From NCBI GenBank assembly GCA_964522435.1, contig CAZFUL010000002.1:44631-108630 (forward strand): DNA of 64,000 bases, read 5' to 3'. Of the stretch, positions 967 to 43,203 are shown piece by piece (position 1 is the first letter of the stretch; every line of letters starts with the position of its first letter). The notes beneath the pieces were generated by a model. It worked only from the letters and a program-made list of their open reading frames with translations. It was not told the DNA's origin and did no database searches. A program made the position numbers and the translations under genes. Origin of the DNA: an uncultured Gammaproteobacteria bacterium. Its GTDB lineage: Bacteria > Patescibacteriota > Patescibacteriia > Magasanikbacterales > UBA922.

Positions 967-1761
967 ATGATTGAATTACTTCAATTTCCTTTTATTCAAC
1001 GGGCACTTATTGGAGGCAGTATTATTGCGTTGTTGCTTGGTTGGATGGGAGTCTATGTGACCAGTAAACAAATGAGTTTTGTGGGTGAAGGGGTCGCGCA
1101 TGCCTCTCTTGCGGCTATTGCTTTGGCATTATTATTAGGCATACCACCACTGCCCACTGCGATTATCTTTAGTATCTTCTTAGGGATGGTGATGTTTTAT
1201 GTAGAAAAAAAATCAACTGTTTCTCGAGATACGGCTATTGGGATTGTTTTTTCTTTTGGGGTAGCCATAGGGATTATATTATTACAATTTTATGATGGCT
1301 ATGTTCCCGAGTTAATGAGTTTTTTGTTTGGAAATATTTTAACCGTGAGTACGCTCGATCTGGGTATTATGGCCGGAGTCACCGCAATGGTGGGAATGCT
1401 GTTGTATATATACCGAAGACAATTTTTGTTTAGTACGGTTGATCCAGAAGGGGCATATTTAAGTGGCATTCATCGAGATTTTTTTGAACTACTTATGTAT
1501 GTGATTACTGCCGTTTCTGTTGTGGTGAGTGTGAAAATGATTGGTATTGTTCTTGTGACGGCCTTATTAGTTATTCCGGCAGCAATTATGCGTTCGTTTT
1601 CTCGTTCATTTCGCTCGTTTGTTGTTGGAACAATGATATGTAGTTTTCTTATTGTGGAATTAGGATTATTTCTTTCTTTTTTTCTGGATTGGCCATCGGG
1701 CGCTACGATTGTTTGCGTTGGATCACTGATATTTTTACTCACTCGTTTTATAAAAAAATAA
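967..1761 (+). CDS. znuB: Metal ABC transporter permease, ZnuB-like
   Basis: 264-aa polytopic membrane protein directly downstream of znuC. Typical ABC-3 permease hydrophobicity. Confidence 0.7.
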   Translation: MIELLQFPFIQRALIGGSIIALLLGWMGVYVTSKQMSFVGEGVAHASLAAIALALLLGIPPLPTAIIFSIFLGMVMFYVEKKSTVSRDTAIGIVFSFGVAIGIILLQFYDGYVPELMSFLFGNILTVSTLDLGIMAGVTAMVGMLLYIYRRQFLFSTVDPEGAYLSGIHRDFFELLMYVITAVSVVVSVKMIGIVLVTALLVIPAAIMRSFSRSFRSFVVGTMICSFLIVELGLFLSFFLDWPSGATIVCVGSLIFLLTRFIKK

Positions 1762-1786
1762 GCAGGAGTACCTGCTTATTTTTTTT
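1760..1786. terminator. Bidirectional rho-independent terminator between znuB and the ZnuA-like gene
   Basis: Stem AAGCAGG / CCTGCTT with loop AGTA. A-run on the 5' side and T-run on the 3' side. Confidence 0.6.
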
Positions 1787-2699
1787 GAAGGATCGCTTCT
1801 ACATTATAGTTGATAAGATCAATATACGTTTCTGTTTCTTTTGATCCACCTAAGGGATCAAGCACGCCAATCGTAATATTATAATCATCTGCAAAGCGGG
1901 TAAGCACGCTAGAGGAGAGTTGTGGCTCACGATACACGCGGGTAACGTTGTGTTCTTCTATAATACTCTGTAACTCTTGCAAATATTGTGCGGTTGGTTC
2001 TTTTCCTGCAAATGGTTCCACTGTTGCTACAACGTTGATATTAAAATGATCAGCAAAGTAGGCAAAGGCGTTATGAAAGGTGATGATATTTTTATCCTCA
2101 AGCGTAGCAAGTTGTTCAGTCCAGATAGCGTCTTGTTCTTGTATACGTTGTTTTAATGCACTTGCCCGTTCACTATAAAGCGTTGCGTTATCCGGATCAT
2201 TTCCTGCAATATAGTTACTCATCGTATCAATAATGATAATCATGTTATTTGGATCAAGCCAGTAATGCGGGTCATAGGCTCCTGTTTCTTCTTCATGATG
2301 AGTTGCGTTATGGTCTTCCTCATGGTCATCATGATGGGTATATTCTTTAAGAGGAATACGTAGGTCGACCGTAATTTTTTGTGCGCTATCAATTTGTGGC
2401 ATGATAGCATCAACCCAGTTATCTAGCTCTTGTCCTATAGCAAATATAATATCAGCGCCTTGTGCTTTTTTAATTGTCGTACTTTTTGGCTCATACAAGT
2501 GTTCGCTTACCCCTGCAGGTAATAAAAGGACAACGTCTGTTTCATTTCCTGCAATAGTTTTTGCGACATCATAAAGGGGGTAAATAGTTGTTGCTACTTT
2601 TGGTTTTTGGGCGATAGGGCCACGGGGTTGTTGTATGATGGCATAATAGATTCCTGTGACGATGAGTACAATAATAAGTAAGGGGAGGTATTTTTTCAT
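1776..2699 (-). CDS. znuA: Periplasmic metal-binding lipoprotein, ZnuA/TroA-like, with His-rich loop
   Basis: Start trimmed to MKKYLPLLIIVLIV, a signal/lipobox-like N-terminus. The longer ORF overlaps the upstream MFS gene. His/Asp/Glu-rich loop HHDDHEEDHNATHHEEE is typical of Zn-binding ZnuA. Confidence 0.7.
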   Translation of the reverse strand: MKKYLPLLIIVLIVTGIYYAIIQQPRGPIAQKPKVATTIYPLYDVAKTIAGNETDVVLLLPAGVSEHLYEPKSTTIKKAQGADIIFAIGQELDNWVDAIMPQIDSAQKITVDLRIPLKEYTHHDDHEEDHNATHHEEETGAYDPHYWLDPNNMIIIIDTMSNYIAGNDPDNATLYSERASALKQRIQEQDAIWTEQLATLEDKNIITFHNAFAYFADHFNINVVATVEPFAGKEPTAQYLQELQSIIEEHNVTRVYREPQLSSSVLTRFADDYNITIGVLDPLGGSKETETYIDLINYNVEAILQKK

Positions 2700-2766
2700 A
2701 GAATAAAAAGATGTAATATATAAAGGGTAAGAGTATTGTAGTGCAACACGGTTGCATTTGTCAAGC

Positions 2767-3984
2767 CTATGTATTGGGGGAGGCAATTTGAGCTCCTTTA
2801 GGCATGCGGAAAAAAACAATCGTAATAATACACAGCAAGGAAGCAAGCATATACGGGTAGAGCATACTTTTTGTAATAAGGAGTGCCGCAATAAGCATAA
2901 TAGGAACTTCAAGGATACTTTTACATATATTAGTTAACGATAAACTCGTTGCTCTATTAAACGATTTCATTTTTTTATTAAGGTATGTGCTATACAGCGG
3001 GTTGCGTGTATTTTCTAGCATGGCAAAAAAAATAAAACAGCTGTAGAGAATATAGGGATTGGGTAATAACCATGCAAAGAGTAAAAAAAATACGGTCATG
3101 AGGGTTGTCATAGCGGTCATTCTATTGATTGTTTTTTCTAATGGTAACGAAATACGGGGAAGAATGTATCGAGAAATAATGTATGATCCTAATTGCATAA
3201 GTGACCAACCTATGCCAATAGCTAAGAGAGATATTCCCAGACTGCTGTAATACACTTGGGAATATTGCCACACCATAAGAGAGGCAATAAAAGGGAGCAG
3301 ACGATTAATAATTGCGTAGAGTATCTCATGATCTTTTTTTATGAGAATAACGGCATCATGAAGAATACCAGCGTTTTGTTCTTCGATATCGTGAGTATGT
3401 TGTGGTTCCGTAAGACGGAGGCTAAATATTGCTGCAATAAGGGTGAAACATATATCGAGAACAATGATGAGTTGAAATTGCCATTCTAATAAATCTTTTG
3501 CTAAAAGAACAGCGATGATAGGGGTGATAATTTTAAAAAATCGTTTAGCAGAATAATAATGAGATAAATGTTTTAATCCATGAGAACCGTCTTCGCCTAA
3601 TTCTTTGGCACTATCATAGAGCAATGCCTCATCTGTTCCAGACATCATCGCAACGTTAATACCATATAAGGCTGCCCCAATAGCAAAGATGATAAAAGAA
3701 TCAGCAAAAAAATAGAATACCCAATACAATAGGCCTAAGATAACTCCCAACATGATTGTTTTTTTTCTTCCCCAACGATCGGCGAGATAGCTCGAGGGTA
3801 CTTCGGTGAGTGTATTTGCAATAGCCCAAATTATTCCTAGGTATAGTATCTCAGATAACGAAAGTCCTCTGTGGAGATAAAATAATGAAGAAATTGCACC
3901 AAATAACCGGGCATTCATACATGCTTGGATCCAAAAGGTATAGGAGACATTCTTGCGTAACCCCTGAGCGCGTACGGCATCCAT
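2767..3984 (-). CDS. MFS transporter
   Basis: 405 aa, 12-TM-like hydrophobicity. MFS motif region LADRWGRKKTIMLG. Confidence 0.65.
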   Translation of the reverse strand: MDAVRAQGLRKNVSYTFWIQACMNARLFGAISSLFYLHRGLSLSEILYLGIIWAIANTLTEVPSSYLADRWGRKKTIMLGVILGLLYWVFYFFADSFIIFAIGAALYGINVAMMSGTDEALLYDSAKELGEDGSHGLKHLSHYYSAKRFFKIITPIIAVLLAKDLLEWQFQLIIVLDICFTLIAAIFSLRLTEPQHTHDIEEQNAGILHDAVILIKKDHEILYAIINRLLPFIASLMVWQYSQVYYSSLGISLLAIGIGWSLMQLGSYIISRYILPRISLPLEKTINRMTAMTTLMTVFFLLFAWLLPNPYILYSCFIFFAMLENTRNPLYSTYLNKKMKSFNRATSLSLTNICKSILEVPIMLIAALLITKSMLYPYMLASLLCIITIVFFRMPKGAQIASPNT

Positions 3985-3987
3985 AGA

Positions 3988-5370
3988 TTATAAGAAAAAT
4001 TTATCAGCAATAGTATAGATACTGAATATGCCAAAGATGATAAAAATAATCAAGAGAATTGCTTTTCGCCAAAGTTTTGCCTGTACTTCTTTTGGCAGTT
4101 GATGATGATTCATCCAATTTACTAATCCTACATGAACAAACATGGCAACGGCATTAATGATTGCTCCAAGCGTAATAAGAAACCGTGGTTCAGAAATATT
4201 TAATATAAATAACATACAGCCAAATGCAATTTGTGACCAAAGAAAGATATAGTACAGACGAGAAAGATTTACTGTTGGGGTTTGTTGTTTTTCTATTTTT
4301 TTGATAGCCGCATTTTCTGCCATGATGCGACTGGTAGAATCGAGAATTCCCAGTTGTGTTTGAAATAACATGATCATGACCGCGATTAAAAACAGGAGAC
4401 CCACAAAGGGGTGAATGTGTTCTGCGATCATGGCGCCTTCTGCTAACACAAATTGAATGCCTTGCCCCGTCGTGTTTTTGCCATAGGTCGTTGCATAGGA
4501 CAACAGCATAAGTAAGAGCATCGCAACGGCACCCATAAACCAAAAGACAATGAGATGTTCTATATTCACCCGTCTCCACCACACATGAAAGCGAGACAGA
4601 TTTTCTTTGTTGATAGAAAACGTTTTTCCACTCAGTTTTATTTGCTGTGCTTCTTTGCTTCTAAATAAGCCAGAGATTTTTTGTGCATAGGCACCCATGC
4701 CATAGCCTTTTTCTTTAATATAAATAGATTGGGTTAAATTCAAATTGCCTCCTGCTCCAGAATAGGCAAAGGCGGCAAAAAAAGAGGCAAAAGCAATACC
4801 TTCTGGCAGCCAGCGGTATCCGTCTCCATAGCCCAGTAATCCACTACCAAGCGCGGCCCAGTCAGCACCGCTTACAATAATAAGCGCAAGAATAAAAATA
4901 AACGGTACCGCAATAAAAATAATGGTCTGTGTTGTTTTTTCCATGAAATTATAGACGGTTTTTCCTAAACTGAGCATAAGTCCCATAGCAACAAGCATAA
5001 GAATCGCGAGGAAGCGATAATCTTGTATGTGCAAAAGTGACCCAAGCACTTGCGCAGACGCAGCGACAATACCAGGTAAGCCAAAGCCTATAAAAGTAGA
5101 AAGAATAAACCAGTAGGGGGCCAGGCGCCATTGTTTTGCTAAACCAACAAACACACTTTCTCCTTTTACCAGGGCATAGCGTTCAATTTCCATATTCATG
5201 AAAAATTGAAAAGTAATACCCAGTACCGCCCCCCAAGCAATGCCAAGCCCAACGGTTGAGGCTAAATAGGGCCATAAAATAACTTCGCCAGAACCAAGTC
5301 CTAAGGCCAAAATAATAAAACTCGGGCCAAGGAGTTTTTTTAGGGAGAGTGGGGGAGGGAGGGGATTCAT
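3988..5370 (-). CDS. mntH: NRAMP-family divalent metal (Mn2+/Fe2+) transporter, MntH-like
   Basis: About 460-aa polytopic protein. N-terminal LGPSFIILALGLGSGEV and overall NRAMP-like architecture. Start moved to the ATG at MNPLPPP, because the upstream start is TTG. Confidence 0.55.
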   Translation of the reverse strand: MNPLPPPLSLKKLLGPSFIILALGLGSGEVILWPYLASTVGLGIAWGAVLGITFQFFMNMEIERYALVKGESVFVGLAKQWRLAPYWFILSTFIGFGLPGIVAASAQVLGSLLHIQDYRFLAILMLVAMGLMLSLGKTVYNFMEKTTQTIIFIAVPFIFILALIIVSGADWAALGSGLLGYGDGYRWLPEGIAFASFFAAFAYSGAGGNLNLTQSIYIKEKGYGMGAYAQKISGLFRSKEAQQIKLSGKTFSINKENLSRFHVWWRRVNIEHLIVFWFMGAVAMLLLMLLSYATTYGKNTTGQGIQFVLAEGAMIAEHIHPFVGLLFLIAVMIMLFQTQLGILDSTSRIMAENAAIKKIEKQQTPTVNLSRLYYIFLWSQIAFGCMLFILNISEPRFLITLGAIINAVAMFVHVGLVNWMNHHQLPKEVQAKLWRKAILLIIFIIFGIFSIYTIADKFFL

Positions 5371-16787: not shown

Positions 16788-17201
16788 TTAGATCTGTACG
16801 TCTGGATACGTTTCTTTGTATTGCTCATTTGTGGCGCCAAAGTAGGTAACGCTGCGTAAGACAAAGTCCACTTCGTAAGAAACGACACCCGCATGCCAAA
16901 TAGCGGTTAAAAACTCCGGAAAGGTACTTTTTCCTGCTTGATCTGTGGTAATTGCCGTCATAAGCGCTTCTTTATTAAACGCGGCAATATCCGCCATGCC
17001 TTGTACTAACGGCGTGCCTTGCTGTACCACATTGCCGTAGGGAGTATGATAGATAGATTGTAACGATGGTAAGTACCAATAATTTTTCGTAATGCCGGCT
17101 TGGCGTAGGGCTTCTGCCAAATACGGAAAGCCACCTACGTTGGGGCGAATGCTCATGGCCTGTTGTTGGGCGGCTATCAGATGGTCTATTGCTTGGGACA
17201 T
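16788..17201 (-). CDS. Hypothetical protein, DUF1398-like
   Basis: 137 aa. C-terminal FPEFLTAIWHAGVVSYEVDFVLRSVTYFG pattern. Weak family recall only. Confidence 0.35.
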   Translation of the reverse strand: MSQAIDHLIAAQQQAMSIRPNVGGFPYLAEALRQAGITKNYWYLPSLQSIYHTPYGNVVQQGTPLVQGMADIAAFNKEALMTAITTDQAGKSTFPEFLTAIWHAGVVSYEVDFVLRSVTYFGATNEQYKETYPDVQI

Positions 17202-17259
17202 AGTGTTGTAGGTATGTTTTTTTATTAATTATTTGATGTTTGCCTCGTCCTGAACCCTG

Positions 17260-17730
17260 TTACGCGCATCCTCCACACAGTCTGTTATAGGGGGTTCCAA
17301 AAATTTCAGTTGAGATAATTGAGGCAATATATAGCAAGAGTACAACGCTGAGTATGTATATACATATTCTTGTAAACGTTCGAAGCTTCTTTGACACGGG
17401 TAAAGAAAAATAAATATAGGTAAGTGCCGAAGTCCATGTTATTCCTAATATAAGGGTGCCAATTCTTATTGATGTTGAATAAGGAAGTTGATTAGTATCA
17501 CTATACAGGGGATTCAATAATATAGTATATATGAGCGTATCGGTAATTGGAATAATGAGATTAATAAGGTCAGCTATGAGTAATAATGGGTAAAAATAGA
17601 AACCAATTAAATAACTTCGCGTGATTCCATGATAGTCATAAAAATTTTTTCCATCAATATAGTTAATAAGTAGAAATACTAATAAACCGATGAAAAAAGA
17701 TTTTATTAATTTTGAATAGAAAGCATTCAT
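17260..17730 (-). CDS. Hypothetical small membrane protein, in the AT-rich island
   Basis: 156 aa with 4-5 predicted TM helices. Local GC is about 30%. Confidence 0.4.
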   Translation of the reverse strand: MNAFYSKLIKSFFIGLLVFLLINYIDGKNFYDYHGITRSYLIGFYFYPLLLIADLINLIIPITDTLIYTILLNPLYSDTNQLPYSTSIRIGTLILGITWTSALTYIYFSLPVSKKLRTFTRICIYILSVVLLLYIASIISTEIFGTPYNRLCGGCA

Positions 17731-17732
17731 AG

Positions 17733-18053
17733 CTATTTAGCAGTTGGTGATGTTGTACGCCGTTTTTCTTTGAAAAAATATAGTATTCCCATGAGTGCAA
17801 AGAATAATCCAAATAGTAGTGCAGTAAAAAAATGATCAGCTCCACATTTTGGCTCCATTCCATTAATGTAACAGCCAACGGGGATAGATAAAAATTTCGC
17901 ATACAAAAAACATAATAACGCAACCATAAGTAAACTGGCACCACGGTAATACCATGGTTTTTTTTTCGTAAATCGCTCTATGGGAAAATACACCATAAAA
18001 AATACGATCGTAAACAGGAGGGTAATTGATACGATACTACGAAATTCGTTCAT
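17733..18053 (-). CDS. Hypothetical small membrane protein, in the AT-rich island
   Basis: About 106-130 aa, 2-3 TM. Start ambiguous: M at 18125 or M at 18053. Confidence 0.35.
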   Translation of the reverse strand: MNEFRSIVSITLLFTIVFFMVYFPIERFTKKKPWYYRGASLLMVALLCFLYAKFLSIPVGCYINGMEPKCGADHFFTALLFGLFFALMGILYFFKEKRRTTSPTAK

Positions 18054-18069
18054 AGGAATAGTGTGATAC

Positions 18070-18378
18070 TTATGTTTCTTTTTTAATCCATTTCTTATTA
18101 ATTGCTTCTTCCAAATCAATCCCAAAAAGATGGGCGGTTACTATCGCCATTCCCACGACATCGGCTAATTCTTTTGCAATTTCTTTTTTGGATATTTCTT
18201 CAGGGACATGTTTTTCTGGCCGACTTTTTTTTCTGTGAATTAATACGGCTTGAGTAAGTTCACCAACCTCTTCGTATAATTTTAATAAACCAAAGTCTTG
18301 GTCTATGTCTACATGGTATTTTTTGCCGTAGTTCATGGCATTTTCTACGATTTGTTGTTGGAGTTCTTGAAAATTCAT
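18070..18378 (-). CDS. MazG-like nucleoside triphosphate pyrophosphohydrolase (small all-alpha NTP-PPase)
   Basis: Hallmark motifs EEVGELTQAVL and ELADVVGMAIVTAHLFGIDLEEAI. Confidence 0.65.
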   Translation of the reverse strand: MNFQELQQQIVENAMNYGKKYHVDIDQDFGLLKLYEEVGELTQAVLIHRKKSRPEKHVPEEISKKEIAKELADVVGMAIVTAHLFGIDLEEAINKKWIKKET

Positions 18379-18537
18379 AACACAATACTGGTTATATAAA
18401 AGCAATTTCGCTATTTTTGTTTATGCGTAGTGTTGGCATATCCCTCCTTAGGTATGCAAGTTACATTTTCGTTAGCATTGGGGCTCCACAGCCCTTCGGG
18501 ACTATGGAGCCGGCTGATTTATTGCTCAACCTTTACT

Positions 18538-19227
18538 CTATCGGGTACTAGCCAACCGATTAGCATCAATATCAATTTTATCAAAAGTGTTAAAAATTTC
18601 TAAAAATAGATTTTCCCAATTTTCATAATGTTGAATATTTTTTTGATGATCGTCTATAATACTAATTATGGGGAGTATCTCACATTTTCCATTTATATTA
18701 ATTCCACTACCGCCTGTACCCCTATAAGCACCTAAATAAAAATTTCCAGTAAAAAATAGTAAAGATGCCGCTTGTATTGAATCAGAATCTTCTCTAGGAT
18801 ACCCAAAACTGGTATGGGCAAATACTTTATGACGAAATTGTATGAATGCCTCTATTTCTTTTTTTCTATTTTCAACATTTATTTTATTAAAAACAATTTT
18901 TATTCCTAGATGAGTTAATGTTTTTATTATTTTTTCATAGCTTCGTTCAAGAATTCTTTCAAGATTATATATAGTATTTAAATAAGAAGTGTAATTAGAT
19001 AAGAATCTTAATTTTCTTTTTTTATATTTTTTTGTATGAGTTTCATCGGAATTTTTGTATTTTTGATAATCTTTTAACTCTCTTTTATATATATCATTGA
19101 GAATACTAATTCCTGTTTGTATAGCATCTATTTCATTATGGAATCCAAAAAATGGTGGTACCTCGATATAGCTGATTTTTTTTGAGTATACGTTGTAAAA
19201 TTTCTTAAACATAAAATGCATCTGCAA
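18538..19227 (-). CDS. Hypothetical protein with a possible HEPN Rx4-6H motif (FRHKVFAH), in the AT-rich island
   Basis: 229 aa, Lys/Asn-rich, encoded by DNA of about 28% GC. Motif RHKVFAH. No other recognisable domain. Confidence 0.4.
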   Translation of the reverse strand: MQMHFMFKKFYNVYSKKISYIEVPPFFGFHNEIDAIQTGISILNDIYKRELKDYQKYKNSDETHTKKYKKRKLRFLSNYTSYLNTIYNLERILERSYEKIIKTLTHLGIKIVFNKINVENRKKEIEAFIQFRHKVFAHTSFGYPREDSDSIQAASLLFFTGNFYLGAYRGTGGSGININGKCEILPIISIIDDHQKNIQHYENWENLFLEIFNTFDKIDIDANRLASTR

Positions 19228-19278
19228 TTTATTCTATATATGTTGTTGGTTTACTTAGAGTGCATTCTTCATTTTTTT

Positions 19279-26516: not shown

Positions 26517-27257
26517 TTAGTTGGCGGCGTCAACCCCAGGGTCATCAGCCTCAGCCGCTCGATAATCGGGTGGTGGGTGGCAGACGACGTCCCCTTCTTG
26601 CAAGGGGTAGGGGCCGCCCTCTGCTGCCCCTTCAAACAGGGGCTGATTGAGGCTGTTGTTCCGCAACATCGCGGTGTAGTTGAGGCCGTACACCGCCGCA
26701 TAGCGGCCGAGGGTATCGGGGTCCTCTTCCTTGACGATCCCGTAGAGAAGAGATCCACAGCGCCTTGCGTCTTTGCGCTCGTTGTTGCTGGGTTGCGGCT
26801 TCTCTTCCTCTGGTTCAACGAGCGCTCCGGTCTTTTCATCATAATCTTTGGGGACAAAGTGTCCCAAGACGTCACCCGCTGGGTCGGCGAGCCCGGCGTT
26901 CAGACGCAGGAGCGTGTGTTCGTCTGAATTGTGGTAGATAATAAAACCGGTTGCCACGAAGAGCAAGGATGCTCCGACCTGCCACTTCCAGGGGAGCCGA
27001 GGGAATGTGCCGAGGTACACGATTGCTGCATGTACCGTCACCCCCAGAAAGATGATCCCGCTGAGCATTGGGAAGAAATTCTGGGCGCCAAACACCGCCG
27101 ACCAGGCAGTGCAGAAGATGAGCGTCATCGTTCCCCTGAGGAAGTTCTTCTGGGCTTTGGTAAACGGAGCTGTTTTCTTCAGGGGAGGAGGTTCTTCTTC
27201 GGGAAACTCCTGAGGGGGAGGTTCAGTGGAATCTGCTGGAGTGTATTTTTCTGTCAT
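26517..27257 (-). CDS. Compositionally foreign membrane protein: Pro/Glu-rich N-terminus, three TM helices, C-terminal soluble domain
   Basis: Coding GC about 58-60% against a background of about 40%. Codon bias CTC/CCC/GGG/AGG. Own promoter and a GAAGGAG ribosome-binding site. No family recognised. Confidence 0.55.
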   Translation of the reverse strand: MTEKYTPADSTEPPPQEFPEEEPPPLKKTAPFTKAQKNFLRGTMTLIFCTAWSAVFGAQNFFPMLSGIIFLGVTVHAAIVYLGTFPRLPWKWQVGASLLFVATGFIIYHNSDEHTLLRLNAGLADPAGDVLGHFVPKDYDEKTGALVEPEEEKPQPSNNERKDARRCGSLLYGIVKEEDPDTLGRYAAVYGLNYTAMLRNNSLNQPLFEGAAEGGPYPLQEGDVVCHPPPDYRAAEADDPGVDAAN

Positions 27258-35343: not shown

Positions 35344-35898
35344 ATGTCAATTAGCTTTGGATTGCGTCGTTTTCTGCAGCAGCTCCGCTACGATGAGCTC
35401 CGGCTGTTCCAACAGTTCACACAGATGGCTGGTACGGGAGATCGCCTGTGTCTGAAAGATATTCCACCGGAGAAGGGAGAAGCGGTGAGCGCCTTCTTTG
35501 CACTGTTGGTGGAACAGGATATCCTCACCCTCGTGAGCGAACAAGGGGCACATGGGAATATCTGGCGTCTCAACCGGCGTTTGTATGACCAGCTGCTTCC
35601 TGCCAGCTACCAGACCCCCAAGGGGATTGTGCTGCTGGTGGCACAGGAATTCCAGCAGCCTGTGGCACATATTTTGGGTCATGAACACCGCAAACCTGCT
35701 GTGTTTGCCACGAAAGTGGTTGCCTGGCTCATGTACAACAATGGCCGGGGCACGACCTCCCAAGCTGATATCGGTAAGGAGCTGAACCGGGCCCAGTCAA
35801 CCGTATGCACCGATATCATCTTCATTGGGCAGGCAATGCTCGAAGATCCGGCGTTCAACGCTCGGGTGATGCGGTTATACGCCCGCATCTACGGCTGA
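35344..35898 (+). CDS. Compositionally foreign putative DNA-binding protein: N-terminal winged-helix-like segment and C-terminal HTH
   Basis: Coding GC about 55% with CTG/GGC/CGC codon bias. C-terminal HTH-like segment TTSQADIGKELNRAQSTVCTDI. Strong ribosome-binding site. Confidence 0.55.
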   Translation: MSISFGLRRFLQQLRYDELRLFQQFTQMAGTGDRLCLKDIPPEKGEAVSAFFALLVEQDILTLVSEQGAHGNIWRLNRRLYDQLLPASYQTPKGIVLLVAQEFQQPVAHILGHEHRKPAVFATKVVAWLMYNNGRGTTSQADIGKELNRAQSTVCTDIIFIGQAMLEDPAFNARVMRLYARIYG

Positions 35899-42713: not shown

Positions 42714-43133
42714 CTAGCGGCGGCGCGTGAGTCCGAATTTGAAGAACTCCCACAGAATCGCGCCAAACACGTCATTGTGGATCTGGTGGATCTGCCGGCA
42801 TTCGCCAATCAGTCGCGGATGCGTGATGCTCTCGAAGCCCCGGGGCATCAAGAAGTCATCATCGGCGATGCCCGCCACGATGGCCGCGTCGAAGATGTCG
42901 GTGAACGCCGCTTCTTCCTGGTCGGAAGAAAGCCCCTGAAACAGCCGCTCCCAGGCCGTGAGCGCCTTGGCGCTGCTCCGTGAAAACACCCACGTCCAGA
43001 AGGTTGGTCTCGGCAGCGCGACCCAGCCCGCATCTGTCTTTGCTTGAGTGCTGATTGGAGGTCGCTGTTTCGGGAAGGTGCTGAAGTATTTCACCCTGTC
43101 CCCGTGGTTGATACCTGTGATCAGGAAGATCAT
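42714..43133 (-). CDS. Compositionally foreign small soluble protein (140 aa), unknown function
   Basis: Coding GC about 58%, CTG/GCC/CGC bias. Start MIFLITGINHGDR, preceded by CCAAGGAG. The upstream GTG-extended ORF was trimmed. No family recognised. Confidence 0.5.
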   Translation of the reverse strand: MIFLITGINHGDRVKYFSTFPKQRPPISTQAKTDAGWVALPRPTFWTWVFSRSSAKALTAWERLFQGLSSDQEEAAFTDIFDAAIVAGIADDDFLMPRGFESITHPRLIGECRQIHQIHNDVFGAILWEFFKFGLTRRR

Positions 43134-43174
43134 GCGTTGCTCCTTGGTGGATATGGCAGTATTGCCATGACCGC

Positions 43175-43203
43175 AGTACACAAAAAAAACGAGCTTTTGT
43201 CAA
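43175..43203 (-). promoter_or_regulatory. sigma70-like promoter for the foreign ORF at 43133-42714, TTGACA-N17-TGTACT
   Basis: Read on the minus strand. 5'UTR palindrome ATGGCA-GTAT-TGCCAT at 43153-43168. Immediately upstream is an array of CAATTAACA / TGTTAATTG repeats at 43205-43290. Confidence 0.4.

Follow-up and report, generated by a model that had tools for sequence, protein, structure and literature searches.

An AT-rich trough in a Patescibacteria contig: a predicted stand-alone AbiU2-like HEPN gene, probably acquired, beside a conserved mazG-like gene

Does an AT-rich cluster of four small genes in a Patescibacteria genome constitute one acquired defense system, or do genes of different origin lie there side by side? 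The question arises at positions 17230-19270 of a 64,000-nucleotide stretch (the window) of contig CAZFUL010000002.1 (GenBank assembly GCA_964522435.1), where four open reading frames (ORFs), all on the minus strand and in the same orientation, encode a HEPN-like protein, a MazG-like nucleoside triphosphate (NTP) pyrophosphohydrolase, and two small membrane proteins. A first-pass annotation, made from the letters of the window, had read these genes as an acquired defense or toxin-antitoxin (TA)-like module, and the ORF listing bears out their number, coordinates, and orientation. The four genes are, however, neighbors, not a system. With moderate confidence, we read the trough as the site of a horizontally acquired, single-gene AbiU2-like HEPN ribonuclease (RNase), probably of the abortive infection (Abi) type, beside an unrelated, native mazG-like gene and two orphan membrane ORFs.

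The HEPN-like protein (P0001; 18538-19221, minus strand) comprises 227 aa as called in the database from ATG 19221, and 229 aa if read from TTG 19227, from which the ORF is open. A word-indexed protein search was nearly blind to its family, yielding 2 and 5 matches and a single relative at 35% identity, and a HMMER scan with a two-sequence profile recovered representatives of 138 clusters formed at 50% identity. Of these, 81 were matched at E<=1e-10, and most are 225-260 aa long. These proteins form a real family of no fewer than 138 clusters, unnamed and uncurated. Its hallmark is an essentially invariant motif of the pattern R-[N/D/H]-K-x-[F/A]-A-H, which in the window protein takes the form of the Rx5H sequence RHKVFAH (residues 130-136; codons at 18814-18834, minus strand) and is the predicted catalytic site. 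Among 117 aligned family members, R130 is found in 116 and H136 in all, N, D, or H directly follows the arginine in 115 (position 131, H in the window protein), and the position of E88 is acidic in 96; A135, P142, D145, S153, H198, and W202 are also strongly conserved.

An AlphaFold model of the window protein, built with 60 family members as input, is mostly helical (predicted local distance difference test (pLDDT) 88.6; predicted template modeling score (pTM) 0.87), with helices at residues 28-55, 64-104, 113-122/124-135, 147-158, and 188-213 and a beta-hairpin at 169-186. The Rx5H motif closes helix 124-135, and E88 lies within the preceding long helix, 64-104. In the HEPN superfamily, the Rx4-6H motif, with a polar N, D, or H after the arginine, is placed where a core helix ends on its C-terminal side and the next loop begins (PMC3710099). 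Three features of the superfamily are found here, namely, the Rx4-6H motif itself, the N/D/H residue after the arginine, and the location of the motif at a helix end with an acidic residue in the preceding long helix. Moreover, in a scan of 24,736 Pfam models, HEPN_AbiU2 (PF18734) was the only family matched repeatedly, by 16 of 60 members (best E 4.8e-6), by 15 of 57, and by 7 of the 10 genome-derived homologs, and the match always covered profile positions ~80-147, the motif region. Given the invariant motif, the helical model, and this recurrent match, the 227-aa family likely belongs to the HEPN superfamily, with a fold that is predicted rather than demonstrated; the first-pass suggestion of a HEPN fold from the RHKVFAH motif is probably right, the acidic residue included among its supports.

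The base composition of the trough singles out the same gene. GC content is 0.315 across 17230-19270 compared to 0.405 for the whole window, and the four ORFs of the trough are all among the five with the lowest GC of the 60 ORFs in the window, the 229-aa ORF being the lowest of all (0.261), followed by the ORF for the 156-aa membrane protein (0.310), the MazG-like gene (0.343), and the ORF for the other membrane protein (0.349). The drop in GC noted in the first pass is, thus, real, but at third codon positions (GC3), it is confined to the 229-aa gene, whose GC3 of 0.165 (z -3.84) is the lowest among 54 genes and makes it the sole clear outlier in the trough. Native values are seen for the MazG-like gene (z -0.96) and the 106-aa version of the membrane ORF (z -0.78), with the 156-aa ORF a borderline case (GC3 z -1.5, codon-usage z -2.6). 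Judged by deviant composition, only the HEPN-like gene resembles an island.

The homologs of this gene that we collected come from 11 genomes, which belong to very different phyla, and from another 23 contigs of metagenomes; the hosts include Dehalococcoidales, Syntrophales, Nostocales, Leptolyngbyaceae, Thermosulfurimonas, Planctomycetota, Saccharibacteria, and Paceibacterota. The GC content of the HEPN-like gene is below that of the rest of its own locus in 23 of 26 cases, often as a single-gene trough (for example, 0.33 vs 0.48 in a Syntrophales genome and 0.37 vs 0.54 in locus L028). An all-against-all comparison of the surrounding ORFs revealed no conserved neighbor; tyrosine recombinases/integrases were the only recurrent neighbor family, in 4 loci. 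Other genes near the homologs include an HpaII restriction-modification (RM) system with Vsr, BrnT/CopG, a SocA antitoxin, DUF3644, and NYN proteins. In two syntenic Nostocales genomes, the HEPN-like genes are 72% identical, compared to 86-90% for the flanking genes. By these comparisons, the HEPN-like gene appears to behave as a mobile, fast-evolving, single-gene accessory unit moving between phyla, in line with the role in conflict systems that has been proposed for HEPN proteins of the Abi type. The acquired origin proposed in the first pass for all four genes, thus, gains support for the HEPN-like gene, from its GC3, its patchy distribution among phyla, and its homologs, usually low in GC and often near integrases, RM, or TA genes, but not for the MazG-like gene, which is conserved and near-native in GC3.

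One homolog resides in a conspicuous AT-rich island of ~7 kb in Thermosulfurimonas dismutans (L012, 4930-11900), with a GC content of ~0.28 compared to 0.51-0.55 in the flanking genes, located beside a tyrosine recombinase gene. In addition to the HEPN-like homolog, this island carries a gene for a NYN-domain protein and several ORFs without assignment.

A number of results weigh against the reading of the window gene as an acquired, AbiU2-like nuclease. The HEPN_AbiU2 score of the window protein is 16.4-16.5 bits over residues 118-152, below the gathering cut-off of 26.8, and the similarity in the family is limited to ~35-60 residues around the motif; the genome homologs score 13-23 bits, likewise all below the cut-off. 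Given these sub-threshold scores, we treat the family as a putative relative of AbiU2 rather than as a member of PF18734. A Foldseek search of the model against PDB and BFVD returned only non-significant helical bundles, with the HEPN toxin 7ae6 at rank 38 (E 3.5), such that the structure check produced a confident helical model but no significant match. The family profile matched no PDB sequence, and among 60 family members, there was no relevant match to PADLOC-DB v2, which includes AbiU. Neither is there an evident antitoxin or regulator partner that would keep a lone toxin silent. As for acquisition, the borders of the trough show only AT-rich direct repeats at chance level in place of att-like repeats, there is no integrase in this region and no transfer RNA (tRNA) gene within ~6.6 kb, and close relatives of the flanking FNR-like gene, sought in metagenomes for a presence/absence comparison, were not found. 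Furthermore, the low GC content could stem in part from the I/K/F/N-rich composition of the family rather than from recent transfer.

Some of these results would also be expected if the 227-aa family were not a nuclease at all but a helical protein with another function, such as regulatory, structural, or housekeeping RNA-binding, in which the R/H motif only mimics that of HEPN proteins. The lack of a significant structural match to a solved HEPN protein, of an above-threshold family match, and of an antitoxin partner would be accounted for, as would the conserved elements that fall outside the HEPN definition (the beta-hairpin 169-186, H198, and W202). What this explanation accommodates less readily is an arginine and a histidine that are invariant at a fixed spacing, with N/D/H after the arginine, at a helix end and with an acidic residue upstream; the concentration of the recurrent weak matches on one HEPN family out of all Pfam models; and a patchy, mobile, low-GC distribution typical of conflict genes. 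We consider a non-nuclease function unlikely.

The closest comparison for the favored reading, a stand-alone AbiU2-like HEPN nuclease, is AbiU2 itself (HEPN_AbiU2, PF18734; first seen as Lactococcus lactis AbiU). Both groups are all-helical proteins of roughly 190-250 aa with an Rx4-6H motif and a polar residue after the arginine, and AbiU2, too, is often encoded alone or beside RM genes in mobile contexts (PMC3710099). The differences are that the similarity, with its sub-threshold scores, does not extend beyond the motif helix, that the family described here has its own conserved C-terminal beta-hairpin and a helix with H198 and W202, and that the Sel1-repeat partner listed for AbiU2 (PMC3710099) is not found at the window gene.

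A single-gene integron cassette of Vibrio mimicus MB461, HNPBCG_15845, whose product is predicted to carry a HEPN AbiU2 domain and to form a dimer, is reported to confer protection from T4 and T7 (preprint 10.64898/2026.03.17.712381). By analogy, this cassette can serve as a direct precedent for such a stand-alone gene and as a model for the window gene; the two are likened by description, as stand-alone genes with a predicted HEPN AbiU2 domain on a mobile unit, rather than by sequence comparison. The window gene differs in its Patescibacteria host and in its mobile context, with neither an integron integrase nor a convincing attC at the locus.

The HEPN-MNT type II/VII TA pairs (e.g., PDB 7ae6) share with the window protein an Rx4-6H active site, in their case in a dimeric HEPN toxin. 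Unlike in these pairs, no MNT antitoxin gene is adjacent to the HEPN-like gene at the window locus or at the homolog loci, and the structural match to 7ae6 is, as noted, non-significant. No nucleotidyltransferase occurs among the 25 neighbor families listed, of 67, in ~26 homolog loci, and in the window, the neighbors of the gene are the FNR-like gene and mazG.

Searches of other collections were negative for the 227-aa protein and its family: NCBIfam and PHROGs returned no match for the protein, tblastn against phage and plasmid collections none either, and a scan of IMG/VR with the family pattern none for the family. PADLOC, applied at E<=1 to the four window proteins, returned nothing except a spurious ZorA match at E 0.05; the first-pass remark that the locus matches no named system, thus, stands.

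If the window protein acts as characterized HEPN enzymes do (PMC3710099), it would dimerize, with the R130/H136 pair forming a metal-independent endoribonuclease site that H131 and E88 probably assist. A role in sensing a trigger, or in closing the active site, may fall to the family-specific C-terminal beta-hairpin and the helix with H198 and W202. The protein would remain inactive until an infection cue appears. Once activated, it would cut host and/or phage RNA, leading to translation arrest and a growth stop, that is, abortive infection or dormancy. If this reading is true, an uncurated HEPN family, which comprises 138 or more clusters (50% identity), is widely scattered between Cyanobacteria and Patescibacteria, and is missed by current defense-finder models, joins the candidate single-gene Abi nucleases, and the window gene would be one of the few defense candidates known from the small Patescibacteria genomes.

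The mazG-like gene (P0003; 18070-18378, minus strand) encodes a small all-alpha NTP pyrophosphohydrolase. The first-pass identification of MazG holds: the motifs EEVGEL and ELADVV...GIDLEEA are present, and the protein passes the gathering cut-offs of three Pfam families, PRA-PH (28.2 bits, cut-off 21.3), MazG-like (27.6, cut-off 27.0), and MazG (22.8, cut-off 22.0). The length requires correction, from the 111 aa of the TTG version (18070-18405) to, in all probability, 102 aa: since the homologs are essentially all 102 aa long, the start is almost certainly ATG 18378. There are 607 homologs, of which the best 120 are 70-85% identical to the window protein and nearly all of that length. Those with a named source belong to lineages of Patescibacteria, including Moranbacteria, Falkowbacteria, and Gracilibacteria, and across Patescibacteria, the overall identity range is 70-91%. 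In 30 MazG homologs, E36, E37, E40, E70, and D73, which make up the EExxE...ExxD metal-binding motifs, are invariant.

Among PDB sequences, the relatives are 1vmg, 2q73/2q5z, 5ie9, and 2gta (E 5e-5 to 8e-3). With these small MazG-like proteins, which include Sulfolobus SSO3215 (1vmg) and B. subtilis YpjD (2gta), the window protein shares a length of ~100 aa, the all-alpha build, and the EExxE...ExxD motifs. The Patescibacteria family differs from them in an invariant inserted loop between the two motifs, LIHRKKSRPEK, and in its unusual conservation, with MazG 84-91% identical between distant genomes in which RimK is 61% and the DEAD helicase 42% identical. The loop, residues 46-56 of the window protein, is specific to the Patescibacteria MazG-like family and might determine the substrate.

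Given this high conservation, the lack of matches in IMG/VR viral contigs, and a partly conserved leader, the mazG-like gene is a native, strongly constrained Patescibacteria gene rather than island cargo. Its product would be a pyrophosphohydrolase of the house-cleaning type.

Between the HEPN-like gene and mazG lies a spacer of 159 nt, the whole of which folds with a z of -3.8. It contains a GC-rich hairpin in an AT-rich setting (18482-18511, minus strand), located 27 nt past the HEPN-like stop codon, with a 13-bp stem and a folding energy of -24.9 kcal/mol (z -5.3). The hairpin lacks a U-tract and is not called by a simple terminator scan; it has no second copy in the window and no match in Rfam. 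Probably, this hairpin serves as a 3' end or as a terminator-like element that separates the HEPN-like gene from mazG. An integron attC was also considered for this hairpin and rejected: the stem is bordered by GTTGAGC and by GCTAAC-like words, but by eye, these stand in the wrong order relative to RYYYAAC...GTTRRRY, and there is no integron integrase.

The remainder of the spacer includes the leader or promoter region of mazG (18379-18429, minus strand), delineated by alignment with other Patescibacteria mazG loci. Just upstream of the ATG, it carries the blocks TAC..AAAC...GAAAT..TTTT...TTATG, common to most of the loci aligned, and could be a promoter or an element of the 5' untranslated region; Rfam gave no match for the window copy. 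The AT-rich sequence …AAAC.TTA..GAAATAAATTTTAATTTTT.TTTTATG is partly conserved between the window and the ~50 nt upstream of mazG in L003, L004, L022, L051, and L053.

The HEPN-like gene would have inserted between the gene for an FNR-like reductase and mazG, in a flank that varies among Patescibacteria. We compared 8 independent Patescibacteria mazG contexts, a small sample in which the neighbors within ~5 kb upstream were classified by hand. Defense, toxin, or mobile genes are found upstream of mazG in 6 of the 8 contexts and downstream in 0-1, where housekeeping genes prevail (7-8 of 8). The upstream genes are the HEPN-like gene in the window, a HinfI RM system in L003, two Fic genes and a transposase in L004/5, a DNA methylase and a CD-NTase/Cap15 pair of a cyclic-oligonucleotide-based anti-phage signaling system (CBASS) in L020, HicA with a partner in L022-24, and an IceA RM system in L048/49. 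L004 and L020 have the same downstream RimK/DEAD synteny but different upstream cargo, which points to a possible hot spot in the 5' flank of mazG.

In L020, a Patescibacteria-type contig, the cargo spans positions 1018-4565 directly upstream of mazG and consists of a C5 DNA methylase gene, a 338-aa gene without assignment, and CBASS-type genes for a CD-NTase and a Cap15-like effector.

A gene order of this kind has a counterpart. In the mazE-mazF-mazG operon of E. coli, mazG lies downstream of mazEF, and MazG has been proposed to act as a nucleotide-hydrolyzing moderator. The likeness lies in a MazG gene that directly follows a toxin gene in the same orientation. The E. coli MazG, however, is a two-domain protein of 263 aa; in Patescibacteria, the upstream gene varies by genome; and in the window, a hairpin and a leader of its own stand between mazG and the upstream gene.

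Two explanations could follow from this arrangement: either mazG is functionally coupled to the toxin or defense gene upstream, or its 5' flank is an integration hot spot of which the HEPN-like gene is the current occupant. The upstream-downstream asymmetry, the contrast between L004 and L020, and the E. coli precedent all point in this direction, but against coupling or a hot spot stand, besides the size and the hand classification of the sample, the upstream partners, which are mechanistically unrelated to one another, the equal conservation of MazG where no defense gene is adjacent (L051, L053/54), and the short AT-rich leader as the only candidate for a common att-like sequence. We regard either form as quite improbable. 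The more elaborate proposal, to which we likewise assign a low probability, is that the mazG 5' flank is a Patescibacteria-wide hot spot for swapped defense and toxin cargo, where MazG might cooperate by hydrolyzing a nucleotide alarm or a toxic nucleotide; the HEPN-like family would then be a genuine new single-gene Abi system. The possible hot spot is nevertheless the part most worth following: a conserved mazG with variable upstream defense cargo could be a landmark for mining defense genes in a poorly studied phylum, possibly the more useful outcome in practice.

The two hydrophobic mini-proteins reported in the first pass are also present downstream of mazG. One is a small membrane protein of ~106 aa with ~3 hydrophobic segments (17733-18053, minus strand), whose start is likely ATG 18053; the TTG version (17733-18125, 130 aa) overlaps mazG, whereas the 106-aa version does not, starting 16 nt past the mazG stop codon. 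The other, of 156 aa (17260-17730, minus strand), has ~4 hydrophobic segments according to the ORF listing and hydrophobicity, and its ORF begins 2 nt past the stop codon of the 106-aa ORF. Given these 16-nt and 2-nt gaps, mazG and the two membrane ORFs probably form one transcript.

Neither membrane ORF has a significant match in Pfam, NCBIfam, PADLOC, or PHROG, a relative in phage, plasmid, or viral collections, or a relative in any of the HEPN-like or MazG loci fetched, including the genes downstream of other mazG genes. In the protein collection searched, the exact 106-aa ORF is missing, and the 156-aa protein forms a singleton cluster. Both appear to be lineage-specific orphans.

In three other loci, mazG is followed, directly or one gene on, by a gene for a DUF7670 protein, a four-segment membrane protein of 121 aa (L051, 5417-5782; L052, 562-927; L020, 6592-6957). 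The resemblance to the two membrane ORFs of the window is a positional echo only, with no detectable sequence similarity.

The initial proposal of a single acquired defense or TA-like module, comprising a HEPN nuclease along with a MazG hydrolase and a pair of membrane effectors, is very improbable and largely refuted by context: adjacency, co-orientation, below-average GC in all four genes, the tight packing of mazG with the membrane ORFs, and the atypical codon usage of the 156-aa ORF speak for it, but the MazG family profile matched nothing in the 38 loci (243 kb) with HEPN-like homologs, the HEPN-like profile matched nothing in 13 MazG loci (98 kb), no relative of the membrane ORFs turned up in the vicinity of the MazG or HEPN-like homologs examined, MazG is highly conserved in Patescibacteria with near-native GC3, the spacer with its strong hairpin and partly conserved mazG leader sets the HEPN-like gene apart from the rest, and PADLOC was null. 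Because of the lack of co-occurrence in either direction, the absence of relatives of the membrane ORFs, and this spacer, the original claim of a novel four-gene system does not stand up.

Composition varies elsewhere in the window as well. The DUF1398 gene beside the trough (16788-17201, minus strand) has a high GC3 of 0.471 (z +3.2), so that the flanks are compositionally mixed on both sides. Farther away, three ORFs, at 26517-27257 (minus strand), 35344-35898 (plus strand), and 42714-43181 (minus strand), have a GC content of 0.55-0.59 and a GC3 of 0.64-0.76, compared to a window mean of 0.33 (z >7). Their codon usage is very atypical, and Pfam yielded no match except for a weak one to the DnaA C-terminal helix-turn-helix in 35344-35898. 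These ORFs may be foreign genes, or else non-coding GC-rich elements read as ORFs.

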